From: Amoebidium appalachense
Lineage: Eukaryota > Protista > Ichthyosporea
Assembly (NCBI GenBank): GCA_963693365.1
Contig: CAVNZM010000003.1
Coordinates: 12,435,651-12,499,650 of the forward strand
Direction of reading: 5' to 3'
Length of the DNA: 64,000 nt
In this document: positions 998-63,883 of the stretch, in pieces
Layout: every line of letters begins with the position of its first letter
Numbering within the stretch: the first letter of the stretch is position 1
Translations under genes and position numbers: made by a program
Notes under the pieces: generated by a model
What the model saw: only the letters and a program-made list of their open reading frames with translations
The model's database searches: none
What the model was told of the DNA's origin: nothing

Positions 998-2880
998 TTA
1001 TCGCCGCAGAGACCGTCTTCTTCCTCCCCTTGCCCCCACCCCCGCCCCCGGCCTTTTTTCCCGCCCCCCTCTGCCCTCCTCTGCACCGCTCGTCGCCGTA
1101 CCGTCGGTATTTTCCGACTTTTCGCCTTTCGTTTGCTTTTCGGAACCGCTTCCCCCTTCGCTTTCAGAGCTGTTGTTGCTCTCTGAATCTCCGTTTTCCT
1201 CATTTATTTTCCCGTCTTTTTCGGCTTTTTCATCTTTTTCGCCTTTGCCCCCGGCTGTTTGGAAATCGGCCGGTTTTTCCTCTCCCTTTTCGTCCTCTTT
1301 GACTGTTCTTTCGTTATCATTTTCCTCGTTTTCCTGCTTCTGCGCCGGGGCTTCTTCTCTAACCTTTTCGGTATTTTCAGCCTTCGCTTTTTCTGTTTTT
1401 GCTCGTTTCTGCGGCTTTCCCCCTTGCTCCTTCCCTTCCTCGTTCGTCCTCTTCTGTTTTCCCTTTCCCGCTTTCCCTCCTTCCTCTTTCGTTTCACTAT
1501 CCTCGGTCTTTTCCTGTTGTTTCTTCGCTCCGCCCTTCTGTTTCTTTGCTTTCTTTTCCTCCTCCTCCTTCTCTTCTTCCTCCTTCTCTTCTTCCTCTTT
1601 CTTTTCATCCTCGACCTCTTCTTTTGTCTGTTTTTCCTTCTTCGGTCTACCTCTTTTCTTCGGTGGCTCCTTTGCTTCCACCCCCACCCCCTCCTTTTCC
1701 TCCTCCTCCTCCTCTTTCCTCGTATCTTTCTTCCCTCTCTGCCTTCCTTTTTTCGTCTCCTTTTCTTCGTCCACCTCTACCTCGTTATCTTCATCCTCGT
1801 TTTCTTGCTTATCCACTTTTGCCTTCTTTTTCGGCCTCTCCTTCACTGCTGCAGCCGGCTTCTTCCTGTTCTGTTTGGCACCTCCCTTCCCCTTCTTTCC
1901 CTCCTTCTTTTCCTCATCCTCCGACTTTTCATCCTCGTTTTTTTCCTTTTCGCTTTCACTGCTGGCTTCCTCATCTCCGTTGGCCTCCTCGGCTTTGGCT
2001 TCGGCTGAGAATGAGGTGGGGGGGGGGGGGGGGGGGGAGAAGAGAGGTCGAGAGAAACGACGGGGGGGGGGGGGGGAGGGGGGGTGGCGGGGGGAAGGGG
2101 AGGACGGTGGGCCAGACACAGATAAGGGAAGGGGGGGGGGGGGGAAGAGGGGAGTTGGGGGGGGAAGGGGTGGGGGGAGGGGGGGGAGTGAGAGATTGAG
2201 GTTAGAATGCTGACAGACTGACAGAGTGGGAAAGCACAGTTTTTACGGACAAGATAATGCAGGTCTTACAAAGCACACACAGAGTATGTATGGAACTCAA
2301 ACAGAGCCCATCCTCAGGGGGGTTCCCAAGTCATCCCCAGTACCCGAGTTTCGACCCGTTCACCTCGTCGACGAAACCCAACTAGGATACTGTTTTACTT
2401 AAACATGTGTGTGCCACCAGTCTTGATCAGCGACGTGCAGGAATAATCATAATAAATAATTGATTAATTGAGCAGGATTCAGATTCACAGGCAAAAGCAA
2501 TGGGAAAGATCGGTAGCTAAAGTTGCAGCAGTAAGCAGCAAGCAAGAAAAATACAGATAGAAATATATAAATAAATATAAACATATATATAGAAATCTAT
2601 ATAGATATAGATATCTATATAGATAGGAACTCATGAGAATGGGGCTTCTGGGTCGCTCCCTTGTTGCTACCTAAATCGACCTTCCTAGCTAACACACCAC
2701 CTCCTGTTAAGGGTAATCTAGTCCCCAAGGTTGCTGAATACACAAGCAGAGGGGGCAATGGGTAGGTTTTCCTCTTTTTCTTTTCTTTCCTTTCTTTCTT
2801 TCTCTTTTTTCCATTTTTTTGCTTTCCTTTCCTTTCTTTCTTTCTTTTTTTTTTTCTTCTTTTTTTTTTTGCACGGAAGG

Positions 2881-13198: not shown

Positions 13199-13512
13199 TT
13201 TTTTTCCCCTCCTTCCTCCCCTTACTCCCACAGACAAATATCCACCGAGCTGAAAGTCCTCTACGAAGCCAAATCCCCCTACGTTGTGGGGTTCTATGGT
13301 TCCCATTTTGCAGACAGCGATCTTTCCATCTTCATGGAGTATATGGATGCTGGGTCACTGGAGACACTATACAAGAGGATGGGCACTATACCGGAGAAGA
13401 TATTAAGGCCTATTACTAAGAGCATCGTGATGGTAAGAGAATGTGTGAATTGGTGGGTGGGTGGAGGGGGAAGGGTGTGTGTGAGCGTGGGTGTGGGTGT
13501 GGGTGTGGGGGT

Positions 13513-13577
<65 letters not shown>

Positions 13578-13700
13578 CTGTTTGTGTTAGTGTGTGTGTG
13601 GGATGCTGGGTCACTTGAGACACTATACAAGAGGATGGGCACTATATCGGAGAAGATATTAAGGCCTATTACTAAGAGCATCGTGATGGTGGGTGTGGGT

Positions 13701-16377: not shown

Positions 16378-17120
16378 TTCCCCGCCCGTAACATAACTCG
16401 GACTATCGGTTTGGCTTTTTTCAAGCCCAAAGCAATGGGTGATACCATATTTCCGGCTGACATCCGGGGGCATAGCTTTCCGTTCGAAGACGTTAAAGTT
16501 CCGCCCTAGTAAGCGTGTTACTACCCTGCGGCGTGGGTCAAATCTTATATTTTCCCCTTTGATTTCGAATTCTGCGGCCTTCGGTACTTAAGTCTTTTCA
16601 GCTGGTGTAGTATGTTAGCCAGGGAAGTATCGACGTAGGTAGCCATGAGGGAGCTTCCCAGAAGCCCCGTCTCCTGAGTTCCTATCTATATTTTTCTTGC
16701 TTCTGCTTACTGCTGCAACTTTAACCCCCGGCCTTTCCCACTGCCCTTGCCTGCATAAGCAACCCTGCTCGTCTCTGATCAAGACGGGTGACCTACCCAT
16801 GTTCAAGTGAAACAGTCTCTGAGTTGGGTTTCGTTAACGAGGTGAATAGGTCGAAACTCGGGTACTGTGGATGACGTGGGCCCCCCCTGAGGATGGGCTC
16901 TGCTTATTATGCATACTCTTTATGTATGGCTTGCATTCAGCATCATGTTATCCGTTTGTTCTTGTGTACTTCGTACTTTATGACGCATTCAAACCCCCCG
17001 TCGCCCCTTCCCCCCCACCCCCCCCCCAACACACGCACAAAAAAAATTACCTGACACCCATCTCCCCCCCCCCCTCTCCCGCACCACACACACACACATA
17101 CATAAACACATGCACACGCA

Positions 17121-20798: not shown

Positions 20799-21195
20799 AT
20801 GTATGCGTTAGAGGGTTGGAAATGTGGAGGAGACACCAAAGAGCAACAACAAAAGCGTCACAAAGGTTGGAAATCCAAAATCCAACAATTTAAGCGTGCA
20901 GGCAGATGACACTTGAACAGAGCCCATCATCAGGGGGGTTCCTATGCCTCCACAAAAGCATGGGTTTCGACTCTTTAACCTCTCGCACGTAGTTCCCAAC
21001 CCATACTTTGTTTCAACAGCAATAGGCGAGTCCACCCGTCTTGGCCAAAGACGAGCAGGGTTGTTCAAGGAGCAGCAATCTAAGAACACAGAGTGTACGA
21101 AATCTGCAAGCAGACAAAAAAACAAAAAAAGCAAGCAGAGAGATAGAGCATAAGCCCGGCTTCTACAAAGCTCCCCGACTCCTTAGCCTATAGAG
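20798..21195 (-). mobile_element. Subfamily B element
   Basis: Repeated at 22826-22980 and 54698-55065. It shares aaccctgctcgtct..aagacgggt, gtcgaaac and ccctgatgatgggctctg with A and C, and has G-runs at both ends. Confidence 0.85.
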
Positions 21196-22817: not shown

Positions 22818-23124
22818 GGGGGGGGATGTATGCCTTAGAGAGTTGGAAATATGGAGAAGACGCCAAAGAGCAAAAGCAAAAACGTCACAAAAATGAGAAG
22901 CGTGCAGGCAGAAGACACTTGAACAGAGCTCATCATCAGGGGGGTTCCTATGCCTCCACAAAAGCATGGGTTTCGACTCTGGAGGGAGGGAGGGGGGACA
23001 TGCACACTAGGGGGAAGGGGGCGCACCAAGGGAGGTTGCAGCAAACAAGACAGCAAAAGAGCCCGGGCGGGGGGGAGGCGGTAAGCATCCCAAGGGGGCA
23101 ATGCATTAAGGGGAGATGCTCTCC

Positions 23125-23180
<56 letters not shown>

Positions 23181-24161
23181 AACACCTGTTGGCGGGGGAG
23201 AGGGGGGGGGTGGGGGGGGGGGGCGGGGTTTGAATGTGTCATAAAGTACGAAGTACACATGAACAACGGATAACACGATGCAGAGTGCAAACCATACATA
23301 GTGCAAACCATACTTAAAGATTATGCATAATAAGCAGAGCCCATCCTCAAGGAGGGCCTACGTCATCCACAGTACCCGAGTTTCGACCCATTCACCTCGT
23401 CAACGAAACCCAACTCAGATACTGAGCCGGGGGGGGGGGGGGGGGGGGGGGGTTATATGCGTAACAGTTGGGGATAAATACGTGTAGGGAACATGCTCTT
23501 CAGAGGGAAGGGTGTGTGTGTGTGTGTGTGTGGGGGGGGTGGGGGGGGGGGGGGGGGGGGGGGGTAAGAGAGGATACACACCTGTGGGAAGAGAGCGCAG
23601 CAGAGGGGGGTAGAGAAAACGAGGCAGATGCCAGCAAGACCCACGGTGATTGGTGCAGCCAGCCAGGGGACCTTCTGGAGCAGCACACCCTTGGACAGCT
23701 TATTCATCACAATGGGCGGGATCACCATGCCTGGCGTGGCCATGAGGATACGCGAGGGAATCACCTGTGCGCGTGTGTACGTGTGTACGTGTGGGTGAGT
23801 GTGAGTGTGTGTGTTGGGGGGGGGGGGGGGGGGGGGGGGGTGGAGGCTGGAAGGTAAGGAGGTGTGTGTGTGCGTGTGTGTGTGTGTGTGTTGTGGTGGT
23901 TGTGGGGAAGGGGGGGGGGGGGGGGGGGGGGGGGGGGGAATAGGGTTAGTGGTTGCAGTGTGAGGGTTTGTTTATTTGCGTCTCGTGTATTGTGACCAAA
24001 AAGGGTGGAAACAGGAGAAGAATACATTACCAGAGTAAGAAGTGCACATTCCATGCCGGGCACACAATGCAGTTTGAAAGCTACAAACAAGGAAAAGAAC
24101 CGCAGAAATAACACAAACCCGAAATGAATGTGCATATGTATGCTATGCAATGTACACTCCC

Positions 24162-26416: not shown

Positions 26417-26536
26417 GAGGGGGGAGGGGGGTTTGAATGCGTCAAGAAGCACGAAGTACACAAGAACAAACGGATAACACGATGCAGAATGCAAGCCATA
26501 CATAAAGAGTATGCATAATAAGCAGAGCCCATCCTG

Positions 26537-31798: not shown

Positions 31799-43621
<11,823 letters not shown>

Positions 43622-48144: not shown

Positions 48145-48962
48145 CCGGCACTGCTGTTATTGTATCCCCTCTTGAGCTCCTACGGACCAATGCCCAATCG
48201 TTGCAGGGCAAAGGAGGACTCGGCATGTACAGTGGTATGTGCCCCCCGCCCCCCGCCCCCCTCTCCCTGCACTCTATCCCCCCCCCCCCCCTCCCCCCCC
48301 CCCCCCCCCCCCCTCCCCCCCGCCTCCCCCAGACATCTTTACTTCCATGCAACCGGGCATGGTTGCTCTGTGTCGTGCATCTGTAAGCACATACACATTT
48401 TTCGCTGCACTGCATTAGTTTGCACACACATCTTCACCGTTTTGCTCACCTTGCTTGCATAAGCAACCCTGCTCGTCTTTGATCAAGACGGGGTGACCCA
48501 CCCAAGTTCAGTTGATGCCGCTGTCTAAGTTGGAGCGTCGTATATACGCGGGCTAAGGGGTCGAAACTCAGACGAAATTGATGACTTGGGCCCTCCCTGA
48601 GGATGGGCTCTGCTTATGACGCATACTGTGCGCATGGCTGATGTTGCATACTTGAATGTTTGCCTTTGCATGTGTCCTGCACCATGCTTCTCATCGTGTA
48701 TGCGTACTTCGTACTGTGTTCCGCATTCAACCCCCCCCCCCCCTCCCCCCCCCCCCCCCCGGGGGTGGGGGGAGGAAGCAAGAAAGAAAGAGAAGTCAAA
48801 GAAAAAGAAAGAAGTGCTACAGTTATATCCCCTCCCCCCTCCCCCTCCTCCCCTTCCCCCGCTCAGTCTCACTCACTCATCTCACTCTCGCTGCACTCAT
48901 ACTGATGCAAACACACGCTCTCATATGTATATGCAATACACACATGCGCGCACGCACGCACG

Positions 48963-49264: not shown

Positions 49265-50683
49265 GGGGGAGGGGGGGGGGGGGGGGGGGGGGGGGGCAAA
49301 GGAATGACATAAAGAAACAGAACAAGAAAGGAAGACGACCTGTTTTTTCTTTTTTGGTTCCGTTTTTTCTTTTTTGGTTCTGATTTTTCTGACCTTTTTT
49401 GGTTCTTTTATATTATTATTTTTTTTTTTTTAAAAAAAAAATCTGTTTTTCCGTCACCGATTAACTGATTGACCAATCACAGAGCTGTTCATGCGCATGT
49501 ACGGCATGGTGCAAGCCAATGGGATCGCTGCGTTGTGGCGAGGCCTGGTGCCCACATTGTGGAGGGACATTCCCTTTTCGGGTAAGTGCTACTTTCCTTA
49601 TTTGGCAACCAACATGTAAAAACACTATTATCTTTCTTCTGTTTCCTTCCATTTGAACCTTCCGCCCCCCCCCCCCCCCCCTTCTTGCTTCTGCTTACTG
49701 CTGCAACTTTAACCCCCGGCCTTTCCCACTGCCCTTGCCTGCATAAGCAACCCTGCTCGTCTCTGATCAAGACGGGTGACCTACTCATGTTCAAGTGAAA
49801 CAGTATCTGAGTTGGGTTTCGTTAACGAGGGGAATAGGTCGAAACTCGGGTACTGTGGATGACGTGGGCCCCCCCTGAGGATGGGCTCTGCTTATTATGC
49901 ATACTCTTTATGTATGGCTTGCATTCTGCATCGTGTTATCCGTTTGTTCTTGTGTACTTCGTACTTTTTGACGCATTCAAAACCCCCCCCCCCCCCCCCC
50001 CCCCCCCTCTCCCTCCCCCCCTCCACCTCTTACTCACCACATTTTTCTTGGACGTTTTTCAAGAAAAGGGGGTGGGGCGGGGGAGGGGGGAAGGGGGGGA
50101 GGGGAGAGGATGGGGAAGGGAGGGGAAGGGAGGGGAAGGGAGGGTTGTGACCTATTGTGTTATGTCATGTCTCCTCCATTATTCCAACCTCCATGCATAT
50201 ACATCCCCCCTCCACACACACACACACACACACTCACACACACACACCATCCGAGGGCGTTCCTCCTCCCTCTATTCTTCATGAATCAACTTGATTTCTT
50301 TGGGTGTATGGTATTCTCGGTACCTGTTTTGAAAACAGAAAACCTGCCTTTGATTGGGGGACATGTTGGCTGGTTGTACAAAAGGGAATAGGCAAGGTGG
50401 TGGTGATGGTGGGTGGGTGGGTGGGTGTTGGGAGGGGGGAAGTAGATGAGAAGGGGAAAAGGGGGGGGGGGGGGGGAGTGAGGGGGAAGGTGGTGTGGTA
50501 TAGGATAGGTGCTAATGCGATGGGCCACCCAGCCATCTACTGGACTGCCTACGAGGCGGGAAAGAGGTCACTGCACCGCATAAGAGGCCCAGTGGGGAGG
50601 GAAAGGTGGGTGTCAACCTCTCCTTCCCCTCCCCCCCCCCCCCCCTCTCTCTCTCTCTCTCTCCCCCCCCCCCCCCCCCCCCG

Positions 50684-54699: not shown

Positions 54700-55065
54700 T
54701 ATACGTATGCGTTAGAGGGTTGGAATTATGGATGAGACAACAAAGAGCAACAACAAAAACGCCACAAAAAATGAGAAGTGTTCAGGCAGAAGATACTTGA
54801 ACAGAGCCCATCATCAGGGGGGTTCCTATGCCTCCACAAAAACTCTTTAACCTCTCGCACGTGGTTCCCAACCCATACTTTGTTTCAACAGCAATAGGCG
54901 AGTCCACCCGTCTTGGCCAAAGACGAGCAGGGTTGTTCAAGGAGCAGCAATCTAAGAACACAGAGTCTACAAAATCTGTAAGCAGACAAAAACAACGAAA
55001 GCATGCAGAGATTTAGAGCATAAGTCGGGCTTCTACAAAGCTCCCCGATTCCGTAACCTATAGAG
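54698..55065 (-). mobile_element. Subfamily B element with a small deletion removing the GAAA motif
   Basis: Collinear with 20798-21195 but lacks gcatgggtttcg at ~54840. Confidence 0.85.
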
Positions 55066-58308: not shown

Positions 58309-58687
58309 GAATGCGGAGCACGGTACAAAGTACGCATACACGGGGGGAGGGAGGGAGGGAGGGAGGGAGGGAAGGGAGGGAGGGAGGGAGGGAGGGAGGG
58401 AGGGAGGGAGGGAGGGAGGGAGGGAGGGAGGGAGGGAGGGAGGATGGGTGTGTGTGTGAGTGCGCGCGCGCGCGTTTGTGTGTATGTACAACTGAATGTG
58501 AGGGGCAGAGTGGCATGTTTTGTTTTTTTTTTAACACGAAGTTTACATTCATGAAGGGCAGGACAATGCAGATTTTGCAGAAAAAGAGCACAGAGTCCAT
58601 GAAGCTAGCTAGTAGAGCCCATCCTTAGGGAGCGGCGCACGGGCAGGTGGGGGCGGGGCATGTGGGGGTGGGCGGGCGGGCGGGCGG

Positions 58688-58725
<38 letters not shown>

Positions 58726-59652
58726 GGGGGGGGGGGGGGGGGGGGGGGGGATGTATACCCTCGTGGCCGGTAAGAACTCTCAGACATTGGCCCGTAGCGG
58801 CGCTCCAAACCCTCAGTGTCATGTCTACGGAGCCACTGACTATGAAGGTCTCCGTGGCAGCAAGGCAGTACACCTATATTTGGATCACGGGGCTATAATT
58901 AGATGCAAGGCAGTACACCTCTATTTGGATCACGGGGCTATAATTAGATGCAAGGCAGTACACCTATATTTGGATCACGGGGCTATAATTAGATGCAAGG
59001 CAGTACACCTCTATTTGGATCACGGGGCTATAATTAGATGCAAGGCAGTACACCTATATTTGGATAGTACGGATATTAATCAACAGGTGCAACGTGTGTA
59101 CATCCATATTTAGATGATGGGGCTATAATTAGATGCATGGTGTGTACATCCATATTTAGATCGTGTGGCTGTAGTTAGATGCAACGTGTGTACATCCATA
59201 TTTAGATCGTGTGGCTGTAGTTAGATGCAACGTGTGTACTCATGTATTTAGATCACAGAGCTATCAATAAATGCAAGGTGTACGCCTATATTTAGACCAT
59301 GCGGCTATAAATAGATGCAATATTTGTAAACCCATATTTAGATCAAAGCACTATGTTTAGATGCCGCGTGGGGGTGGGTAAAAAAAGAAAAGGAGGAAAG
59401 GAGACTGCCGAGGGATATATATATATAGATGGGCAAAGGTGGGGATGATGCTGAGGATGAATGGCTGAGGCTGTGATGTGCCTGCGTCACTGTAGGCATG
59501 CCGGCAGGAAGTGCATCTATATATAGAGCAGAGGGCTATTATTAAGTGGAGGGGGGAGGGGGGGGGGGGGGTTTAGTGCATAGGGGAGCAGCGCTAAAAG
59601 GGGGGAAAGAGGTGTTCTGTGTGCCCTAATTGGAACGGATGGAAACGAGAGG

Positions 59653-61720: not shown

Positions 61721-62057
61721 CTGAAAAAGTGAGAAAAGAAGCACGGTTATTTTTTATGTTTTTGTTTGAAAGAAGTGTTTGTTGAAATTTAAGAGGAGGG
61801 ACGAGGAGAAGAGGGGTGGGCAGGATAGGATGTGGTACACGGCAGGCAGTGCAATTCCACGGATGGCGGAAAAGGTGACACAGATGTGAAAAAAAGGACT
61901 CACATAAATGGTATGCTACAGAAACAACCAACTTTCGGGCAGAAAGGTGCCCATGTCATCCACGGTATCTTTTTCCGACCCGTTCATTGCAACACAAACC
62001 TCCACTCACATGCCCCTTCATTTGAACATGGGAGCCCCAGGGGGGGGGGGGGGGGGG

Positions 62058-62862
62058 TTTGAATGCGTCAAAAAGTACGAAGTACACAAGAACAAACGGA
62101 TAACACGATGCAGAATGCAAGCCATACATAAAGAGTATGCATAATAAGCAGAGCCCATCCTCAGGGGGGGCCCACGTCATCCACAGTACCCGAGTTTCGA
62201 CCTATTCCCCTCGTTAACGAAACCCAACTCAGATACTGTTTCACTTGAACATGAGTAGGTCACCCGTCTTGATCAGAGACGAGCAGGGTTGCTTATGCAG
62301 GCAAGGGCAGTGGGAAAGGCCGGGGGTTAAAGTTGCAGCAGTAAGCAGAAGCAAGAAAAATATAGATAGGAACTCAGGAGACGGGGCTTCTAGGAAGCTC
62401 CCCCGTCGATACCTAAGTCGATACTTCCCTGGCTAACATACTACACCAGCTGAAAAGAATTAAGTCCCGAAGGCCACAGAATTCGTAATCAGAGGGGAAA
62501 ATATGAGATTTGACCCACGCCGCAGGGTAGTAACACGCTTACTAGGGCGGAACTTTATTGTCTTCGAACGGAAAGCTATGCCCCCGGATGTCAGCCGGAA
62601 ATATGGTATCACCCATTGCTTTGGGCTTGAAAAAAGCCAAACCGATAGTCCGAGTTATGTTACGCCGGCGGGTAACATGCCGCATGGGTTCCAAGGGAGC
62701 TGTCGCCAACAGAGCGGTGTGTGCATGCGTGCGCGTAACGCAATGTGTGAAGTGTGTCTATAGCTATGAAAGGGGGTATGCAGAAGTGGACAGATGAAGT
62801 GTGTGGAGAGAAAAACAGTAAGAAGAAAAGTAGACACCGGTATGTGCAACCCCGCACAACAT
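62058..62862 (-). mobile_element. Full-length non-autonomous poly-C-associated element, subfamily A (tandem copy 1)
   Basis: Near-identical to 62881-63684, and its 3' portion matches the copies at 16381, 41513 and 49681. G-runs flank both sides on the + strand. No long ORF. Confidence 0.9.
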
Positions 62863-62880
62863 GGGGGGGGGGGGGGGGGG

Positions 62881-63684
62881 TTGAATGCGCCAAAAAGTAC
62901 GAAGTACACAAGAACAAACAGATAACACGATGCAGAATGCAAGCCATACATAAAGAGTATGCATAATAAGCAGAGCCCATCCTCAGGGGGGGCCCACGTC
63001 ATCCACAGTACCCGAGTTTCGACCTATTCACCTCGTTAACGAAACCCAACTCAGATACTGTTTCACTTGAACATGGGTAGGTCACCCGTCTTGATCAGAG
63101 ACGAGCAGGGTTGCTTATGCAGGCAAGGGCAGTGGGAAAGGCCGGGGGTTAAAGTTGCAGGAGTAAGCAGAAGCAAGAAAAATATAGATAGGAACTCAGG
63201 AGACGGGGCTTCTAGGGAGCTCCCCCGTCGCTACCTAGGTCGATACTTCCCTGGCTAACATACTACACCAACTGAAAAGAATTAAGTCCCGAAGGCCGCA
63301 GAATTCGCAATCAGAGGGGAAAATATTAGCTTTGACCCACGCCGCAGGGTAGTAACACGCTTACTAGGGGGGGACTTTATCGTCTTCGAACGGAAAGCTA
63401 TGCCCCCGGATGTCAGCCGGAAATATGGTATCACCCATTGCTTTGGGCTTAAAAAAAGCCAAATCGATAGTCCGAGTTATGTTACGCCGGCGGGTAACAT
63501 GCCGCATGGGTTCCAAGGGAGCTGTCGCCAACAGACCGGTGTGTGCATGCGTGCGCGTAACGCAATGTGTGAAGTGTGTCTATAACTATGAAAGGGGGTA
63601 TGCAGAAGTGGACAGATGAAGTGTGTGGAGAGAAAAACAGTAAGAAGAAAAGTAGACACCGGTGTGTGCAACCCCGCACAACAT
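62881..63684 (-). mobile_element. Full-length non-autonomous poly-C-associated element, subfamily A (tandem copy 2)
   Basis: Head-to-tail repeat of 62058-62862, separated from it by an 18-nt G run. Both copies end at the same point (...gcaaccccgcacaacat on +). Confidence 0.9.
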
Positions 63685-63771
63685 ACACACACACACACAC
63701 ACACACATAAATAAGCGAGGATTACAGGTAATCAACCAGAACAACAAATGACAAGCAAAACAACCGGCGCC

Positions 63772-63883
<112 letters not shown>

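Follow-up and report, generated by a model that had tools for sequence, protein, structure and literature searches.

The closest described relatives of the RNA considered here are the type-SGC hammerhead ribozymes. Eckert et al. 2023 (PMC10085705) divided the hammerhead into three blocks, S, G and C, and validated non-circular orders of these blocks, chiefly SGC; an S-G-C order in which a helix connects stem I with stem II was reported to cleave in vitro. Block C is assumed in that paper to be uninterruptible beyond 1-2 nt, and the published search patterns call for 4-7 bp in stem I and for no more than 8 nt in the linker between stems I and II. Natural hammerheads carrying a single extra base at the A9/G10.1 position have also been reported (PMC4209133).

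Three further systems are relevant. Non-LTR retrozymes and minimal hammerheads of Penelope-like elements (PLEs) are non-coding, hammerhead-bearing repeats whose tandem copies give rise to unit-length RNA (PMC7229834, PMC4209133; bioRxiv 10.64898/2026.07.22.740005). Naiad elements and most Chlamys elements, both Penelope-like, were reported to be devoid of canonical hammerheads (Craig et al. 2021, PMC8557442). The same source describes 5' truncation, (C)n and (CA)n as the targets of Chlamys, and non-autonomous head-to-tail copies such as Chlamys MRC1; in eight Naiads it lists “HHR_half_core” motifs, whose second half stands at a distance of 35-50 nt; these are left unexplained and are given without a fold in the available part of the text. 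Finally, the standard kink-turn (Huang and Lilley 2016, PMC5061560) is built from a 3-nt bulge followed by G.A and A.G pairs, A.G being the best-folding combination at position 3b,3n.

The stretch of DNA analysed here (64 kb in full, hereafter the window) contains a repeat with hammerhead core letters in the order S-G-C. It is likely, with a probability of about 0.63 by our estimate, that the repeat carries a split-core hammerhead, predicted from sequence to cut after GUU (49813) and most likely processing the RNA of a non-autonomous retroelement of the Naiad/Chlamys type in a slow or gated manner. The preliminary description of this locus had presented the crosswise strand order itself as new. 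This was overstated: since the order of the repeat is S-G-C and its “extra helix” (helix E) occupies the position of the SGC I-II helix, the arrangement is one already published and seen to cleave (PMC10085705). What is left without precedent in the literature searched is the split core with its bracing; that literature included PMC3088659, PMC13725137 and PMC10162972, consisted mostly of papers outside subscription, and in its accessible parts yielded no description of a split core with two helices in the A9/G10.1 gap. No paper bringing together a hammerhead ribozyme, a k-turn and a retrotransposon was found in the literature search. The competing downstream strand for stem II, the kink-turn, the junction formed with helices P0' and H1, the off helix and the type of element, all discussed below, were absent from the preliminary description.

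Core letters and helices of the repeat

Fifteen copies or fragments of the repeat were identified in the window (nhmmer, E<0.05), more than had previously been listed, and six of these are full-length with an intact core. The copies have a common 3' end and varied 5' truncation points, the predicted cut lying 168 nt from the element 3' end. The subfamily A copy to which most coordinates below refer (49682..49981, +) is 5'-truncated, carries C-runs at its flanks and lies sense in an intron of a mitochondrial carrier gene, one exon of which has a Pfam Mito_carr match (49473-49616), further carrier exons having been read by eye. Subfamily A copies are nearly identical to each other and include one with an intact core (16378..16993, +), which lies in sense orientation within the final intron of a MAP kinase kinase gene, and a 5'-truncated one (41513..41700, -). 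The two longest units, of ~804 nt each and 97.4% identical, stand head to tail and are joined by C18 (62059..63684, -). Intact motifs of subfamilies C and B are found at 48449..48627 (+) and 20901..21077 (-), respectively, while another B copy (54787..54949, -) has lost GAAA through a 12-nt deletion. In a divergent copy, D (2286..2476, -), the 3' half is intact and H1, the upstream stem II, helix E and the kink-turn are damaged. Further fragments are located at 23229-23428, 36767-36934, 22826-22980, 26432-26535, 58608-58632 and 61908-62034, all on the minus strand, of which the last two belong to more diverged subfamilies with different sequence past the core; further subfamilies are likely to exist genome-wide.

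The full set of hammerhead core letters is present in the repeat: CUGANGA, C11.1-GAAA, A15.1-U16.1 and the NUH triplet, which is GUU, a weak hammerhead cleavage site. Block S (49800..49816, +) comprises the 3' strand of stem III (49800-49812), GUU and the 5' strand of stem I, GGG; block G (49836..49856, +) comprises the 3' strand of stem II, GAAA (49841-49844) and the 5' strand of stem III; the 3' strand of stem I, CCC, and CUGAGGA follow at 49872..49881 (+; C3 = 49875, A9 = 49881), GAAA beginning 34 nt before CUGANGA in copy A. This 5'-to-3' order is not the circularly permuted, unknotted order of types I, II and III.

All helices proposed in the preliminary description were found in the sequence, and stems I, II and III surround the core with pair-preserving changes among the three intact subfamilies, A, B and C. 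Over these subfamilies, stem III is paired at 23 of 24 positions in its first 8 pairs, with three both-side changes, and the stem II formed with the upstream strand (49778..49782, +, where G10.1 = 49778, with 49836-49840) at 15/15, all Watson-Crick, with two. Stem I pairs at 9/9 over three pairs, with one both-side change and an extension to 4 bp in C; helix E (49784..49793, +, with one bulged U, and 49860..49868, +) pairs at 24/24, its number of both-side changes varying with the bulge register chosen; and the closing helix P0 (49743..49749, +, with 49889-49895) pairs at 7/7 in each subfamily, with three. An HDV-like reading of the same region, in which the closing helix would be P2 and CUGCUCG would be L3, was dropped by eye, as there is no P3/P1 partner and no GCNAA. 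As first described, CUGANGA varies only at N7, and the catalytic letters are all kept in A, B, C and D.

The pairing is largely specific to cognate strands. When strands were swapped between subfamilies, it went from 15/15 to 26/30 in stem II, from 24/24 to 28/48 in helix E, from 23/24 to 38/48 in stem III and from 9/9 to 16/18 in stem I. Across helices I, II, III and E, G-U combinations outnumber A-C by 6:1, which points to the given strand of the element. Because covariation is drawn from only three intact subfamilies, stem II by itself amounts to two covariation events; pairs were counted from motif anchors, since MAFFT puts subfamily B out of register, with the consequence that a scan of alignment columns missed stem II. 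In line with the earlier expectation of no full hit, none of the Rfam matches reaches the gathering score, the best hammerhead trace being a partial Hammerhead_1 at 49778-49851 (14.2 bits, E 9.5).

The proposed opening between A9 and G10.1

The principal difference from type-SGC hammerheads (HRIMA-1 and its variants) concerns block C. The repeat has in common with them the S-G-C order, the full core, a covalent I-II linker and a helix that connects stems I and II at their other ends, but block C is intact in those RNAs, whereas in the preferred fold here it would be opened between A9 and G10.1 to admit P0' and H1. The best-pairing 5' strand of stem II starts at 49778, ~100 nt upstream of A9 (49881). 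Next after A9 stands UGGG, part of an invariant UGGGCUC that opens the segment 49882..49895 (+) and is followed by the 3' strand of P0; its GGG (49883-49885), directly past A9, is predicted to pair with CCC at 49751..49753 (+) as helix P0'. As P0' is invariant in the four copies examined, it offers no covariation. On the other side of the gap, hairpin H1 (49755..49777, +) adjoins G10.1 with 0-1 nt between them. With A9 running into P0' and G10.1 placed right after H1, the core, stem II, H1 and P0' would outline a four-way junction, within which the core and stem II may still be able to stack, while helix E would link stems I and II at their far ends and a kink-turn would bend the long E-III rod.

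The kink-turn (49794..49799, +) consists of a 3-nt bulge and then G.A, A.G and A.G with 49857-49859. In sequence it agrees with the standard motif, in which two helices flank a 3-nt bulge and the G.A and A.G pairs after it, with 3b,3n being A.G in A and B, so that a kink-turn fold is predicted; it differs from the standard one in being set in a hammerhead scaffold. Exactly one such element, in the same register between helices E and III, is present in six of the seven copies scanned and is absent from the decayed copy D. A loose kink-turn motif turns up somewhere in 13-17% of shuffles, and it is therefore the shared register that carries the evidence.

The remaining differences from type SGC concern dimensions and origin. 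As in SGC RNAs, stems I and II are joined on their free sides by helix E. Stem I has 3 bp in A and B and 4 in C, and the linker between stems I and II is 19 nt long in A, compared with ~3 nt in type SGC, and holds a variable hairpin with a palindromic centre (49817..49830, +); the published patterns (PMC10085705), with their 4-7 bp and at most 8 nt, would thus miss the present RNA. The GUU site and the kink-turn also set it apart, and type-SGC hammerheads are known from metatranscriptomes, whereas this motif comes from a eukaryotic genomic repeat.

Taken as a structure, the split-core fold is in our view real, and the initial reading of a hammerhead core with cross-connected helices, A9 and G10.1 on separate segments and a predicted cut after 49813 is well supported, with additional support from the Naiad ends discussed below. 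A competing fold may regulate it. The 5' arm of H1 has an alternative partner at 49880-49886, where it would cover G8, A9 and the five bases that follow (-9.3 kcal/mol, vs -9.5 to -10.9 for H1), and the MFE structure of A favours this alternative and has U17 and A14 paired. The resulting helix, by locking G8 and A9, is a predicted off state. Nested MFE z-scores are weak (-1.2, -1.07 and -2.19), with off folds favoured in A and C.

If true, the split core would break the assumption of an uninterruptible CUGANGA-stem II block, which restricts hammerheads to six permutations, and would account for the failure of standard searches to detect a class of ribozymes in genomes. At 160 nt, with predicted on, off and possibly dimer states, the RNA would also lend itself to straightforward bench work and might serve as a scaffold for switches.

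Naiad 3' ends and the type of element

Six Naiad 3'-end passages in the supplement of PMC8557442 (two beside octopus headers, three near-identical and one separate, forming three sequence groups) show by eye the order II5'-E5'-S-G-E3'-C in the available text, with an upstream stem II of 6/6. The bases past CUGAUGA give at most 2 pairs with the strand before GAAA, so that no usable downstream strand for stem II is seen in these passages; P0' and H1 are visible by eye in five of the six. Read in this manner, the Naiad ends favour a split core. The orientation of the kink-turn as read in octopus Naiads is opposite to that of the repeat. Other passages of the supplement that were looked at hold canonical hammerheads or are ambiguous, and in those Chlamys passages that were looked at, a part of the total, no split-core motif was seen.

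The repeat resembles Naiad/Chlamys elements in its 5' truncation, its head-to-tail insertion, its microsatellite (C)n target, typical of Chlamys, its lack of a canonical hammerhead, and the wiring that recurs by eye in several Naiad 3' ends. The spacing of 34 nt from GAAA to CUGANGA here may be compared with the 35-50 nt given for the Naiad half cores. C-runs of at least six lie within 20 nt of 11/13 3' ends and 9/13 5' ends, as we set these ends, against a background of 7.6% of random windows. The window is very rich in poly(C)/poly(G) and (CA)n tracts, which the element may use and extend. The repeat differs from Naiad/Chlamys in having no ORF and in its host lineage, absent from the list of Craig et al. 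in the accessible part of that paper. No Pfam match was obtained in the element's frames scanned, no tRNA or Pol III A box was found in the unit, and no reverse transcriptase was found among 148 of the 159 window frames, so that an autonomous partner was not seen in the window. Scans for relatives elsewhere gave 57 loci in metagenome contigs, 25 + 2 in viral contigs and 2 in genome contigs, with no relative among them; these were read as chance matches, mostly to coding DNA, apart from two viral contigs that carry true type II hammerheads at or above the Rfam gathering score (L063, 399-466; L079, 399-464). A third, L074, looks the same as L063.

With the retrozymes and PLE hammerheads cited above the repeat shares its non-coding, hammerhead-bearing nature, the PLE link and the tandem-to-unit-length scheme, while some of them are active as dimers, a use which for the present RNA is a proposal. 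They have type I unknotted cores in repeats of 150-450 nt, whereas the present units measure ~800 nt and are mostly dispersed and truncated. By analogy with retrozymes (PMC7229834; bioRxiv 10.64898/2026.07.22.740005), RNA made by host read-through of a tandem would undergo one cut in each unit. In the one tandem of the window, which has two whole units, the predicted cuts fall at 63048 and 62226, 822 nt apart, and the product would be a unit RNA of 822 nt, possibly circularised, which a Naiad/Chlamys-type reverse transcriptase may copy in trans into C-runs. Finished RNA may lock G8 and A9 in the off helix, and cutting is likely to be slow or gated. The repeat may carry the ribozyme that one class of retrotransposon was reported to lack; it would make the question raised by Craig et al. 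2021, whether Naiad/Chlamys elements really lack one, testable. What the window contributes is a host likely to lie outside the animals, an element aimed at (C)n and three diverged subfamilies.

The unit is contained in 20/24 sequencing-run rows, among which no RNA run is listed, making this uninformative on expression. For contigs over 61900-63800 in one DNA run (X3), summed depth, which does not equal copy count, drops from ~787,000 at the 3' end to 41,000 at the 5' end. A U-A to C-G variant of stem II has comparable depths on its two sides (X3, 14,499/12,513; X20, 1,423/1,434); it may represent subfamily C and is not counted as independent support. A (GT)n tract stands in front of the longest unit (62862 and 63685-63705). 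As the contigs of three other runs also run into this repeat at the 5' end of the unit, the true 5' end possibly lies further upstream.

Alternative readings and neighbouring sequence

The alternative that survives best is a variant of the preferred reading, in which the loop of one E-III rod docks on the base of a second such rod, so that single intronic copies are silent and only tandems or paired RNAs cut. That closure needs two molecules, as in this dimer-only form, is possible and falls somewhat short of an even chance in our judgement. Crude geometry points to it: a folded kink-turn leaves a gap of ~56 Å between the end of helix E and the top of stem II, where the linker has 1 nt, although this is a back-of-envelope estimate with an uncertainty of ~20 Å. 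The palindromic centres of both hairpin loops change and yet stay palindromic, the H1 loop being UGAUCA in A, C and D and UGGCCA in B, with the exceptions of the A2 copies, where the palindrome is G-U-interrupted, and of one B copy, where it has only 4 nt; the comparison was made post hoc. The gap and the conserved palindromes together make dimer action possible, a mode already described, with palindromic loops, among other hammerheads of retroelements (PMC4209133, PMC7229834). On the other hand, the same geometric puzzle exists in SGC RNAs that do cleave (PMC10085705), and cnidarian Naiads, in the passages available, have a 13-bp stem III without such loops. In its most extended form, the proposal would be a seventh natural hammerhead wiring, in which a four-way junction interrupts the catalytic strand at A9/G10.1, the kink-turn acts as a brace and activity is limited to a head-to-tail-docked RNA pair; it would be the missing ribozyme of Naiad/Chlamys, extending beyond animals to their unicellular relatives, with sense intronic copies silent and tandems releasing unit-length RNA. 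As a whole, this combination appears unlikely.

Also unlikely is that the hammerhead-derived fold is real and no longer cuts usefully, serving instead as a structure near the element 3' end for protein binding or for recognition by reverse transcriptase. The GUU site, the 3-bp stem I and the truncation points all speak against strong predicted activity, none of the seven truncated or fragmentary copies beginning at the predicted cut (offsets -20, -13, -13, +23, +55, +49 and -28), and together with the off helix they favour this alternative. So does the placement of copies: the four that lie between exons (16378, 26432, 48449 and 49682) are all sense to their host gene, carrier exons having been partly read by eye, and the gene of one of them matches a transcriptome-derived protein at 97-100% over most exons. 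Most other copies share the strand of the nearest Pfam-hit exon, and long C-runs are ~62% sense (81/130, in five rough gene spans). Kink-turns are moreover known to bind proteins of the L7Ae family (PMC5061560). Against this reading, every catalytic letter is retained and N7 alone varies, a pattern that would be difficult to account for if chemistry were not under selection.

A third possibility, which we consider less likely still, is an ordinary type-SGC hammerhead with block C intact, in which a 2-nt insert (UG) precedes a stem II built from GGCUC (49884-49888) and the upstream GACYY acts as an inhibitor until displaced. The downstream strand is invariant and pairs at 4 positions in A, 6 in B, 6 in C and 5 in D; it pairs better than the upstream strand in B (-7.1 vs -6.4 kcal/mol) and in D, and copy D, damaged in its 5' domain, has kept its 3' half. 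One extra U at block C is allowed by the published SGC patterns (PMC10085705), and covariation alone does not distinguish an active from an inhibitory helix. Against this, the downstream pairing shows no cognate advantage (16/18 vs 32/36 when swapped) and contains 6 G-U pairs, and it is weakest in A, the most recently amplified subfamily (-2.3 vs -7.3 kcal/mol for the upstream strand). Helix E is connected to the upstream strand in precisely the manner of the SGC interaction helix, and the Naiad passages offer, by eye, no downstream partner. An uninterrupted block C is obtained only with the weaker pairing and is lost with the preferred upstream strand.

Chance resemblance within a repeat, or helices that merely reflect DNA terminal inverted repeats, is largely refuted. 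A loose any-order core descriptor does match outside the element, at one of its 10 window sites (55920, a low-complexity chance match; the other 9 lie inside copies) and at 5/82 control loci (two of them the sequence of a true type II hammerhead). Such a core is nevertheless rare by chance, as 20,000 dinucleotide shuffles per copy gave 2 matches for A, 1 for C, 6 for B and 2 for D. Also against this possibility, three diverged subfamilies keep five helices and a kink-turn in register, the G-U bias points to one strand, and published Naiad ends show the same wiring by eye.

Some further observations concern the surroundings of the copies. For a retroelement with a ribozyme, a sense bias of copies is unusual. 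The host is an intron-rich eukaryote: among named matches, the best for a sideroflexin exon in the window is from Ichthyophonus hoferi (80%), and a kinase exon gave matches of 99% to a EukProt protein and of 78% to an Ihof record, which makes an ichthyosporean, a unicellular relative of animals, likely. Part of a kinase exon (P0008 residues 198-226) is duplicated inside the gene, at 13232-13432 and 13602-13688. Tandem repeat arrays at 39129-39933 and 58860-59364 overlap M20 peptidase-like and Zn-ribbon-like frames.
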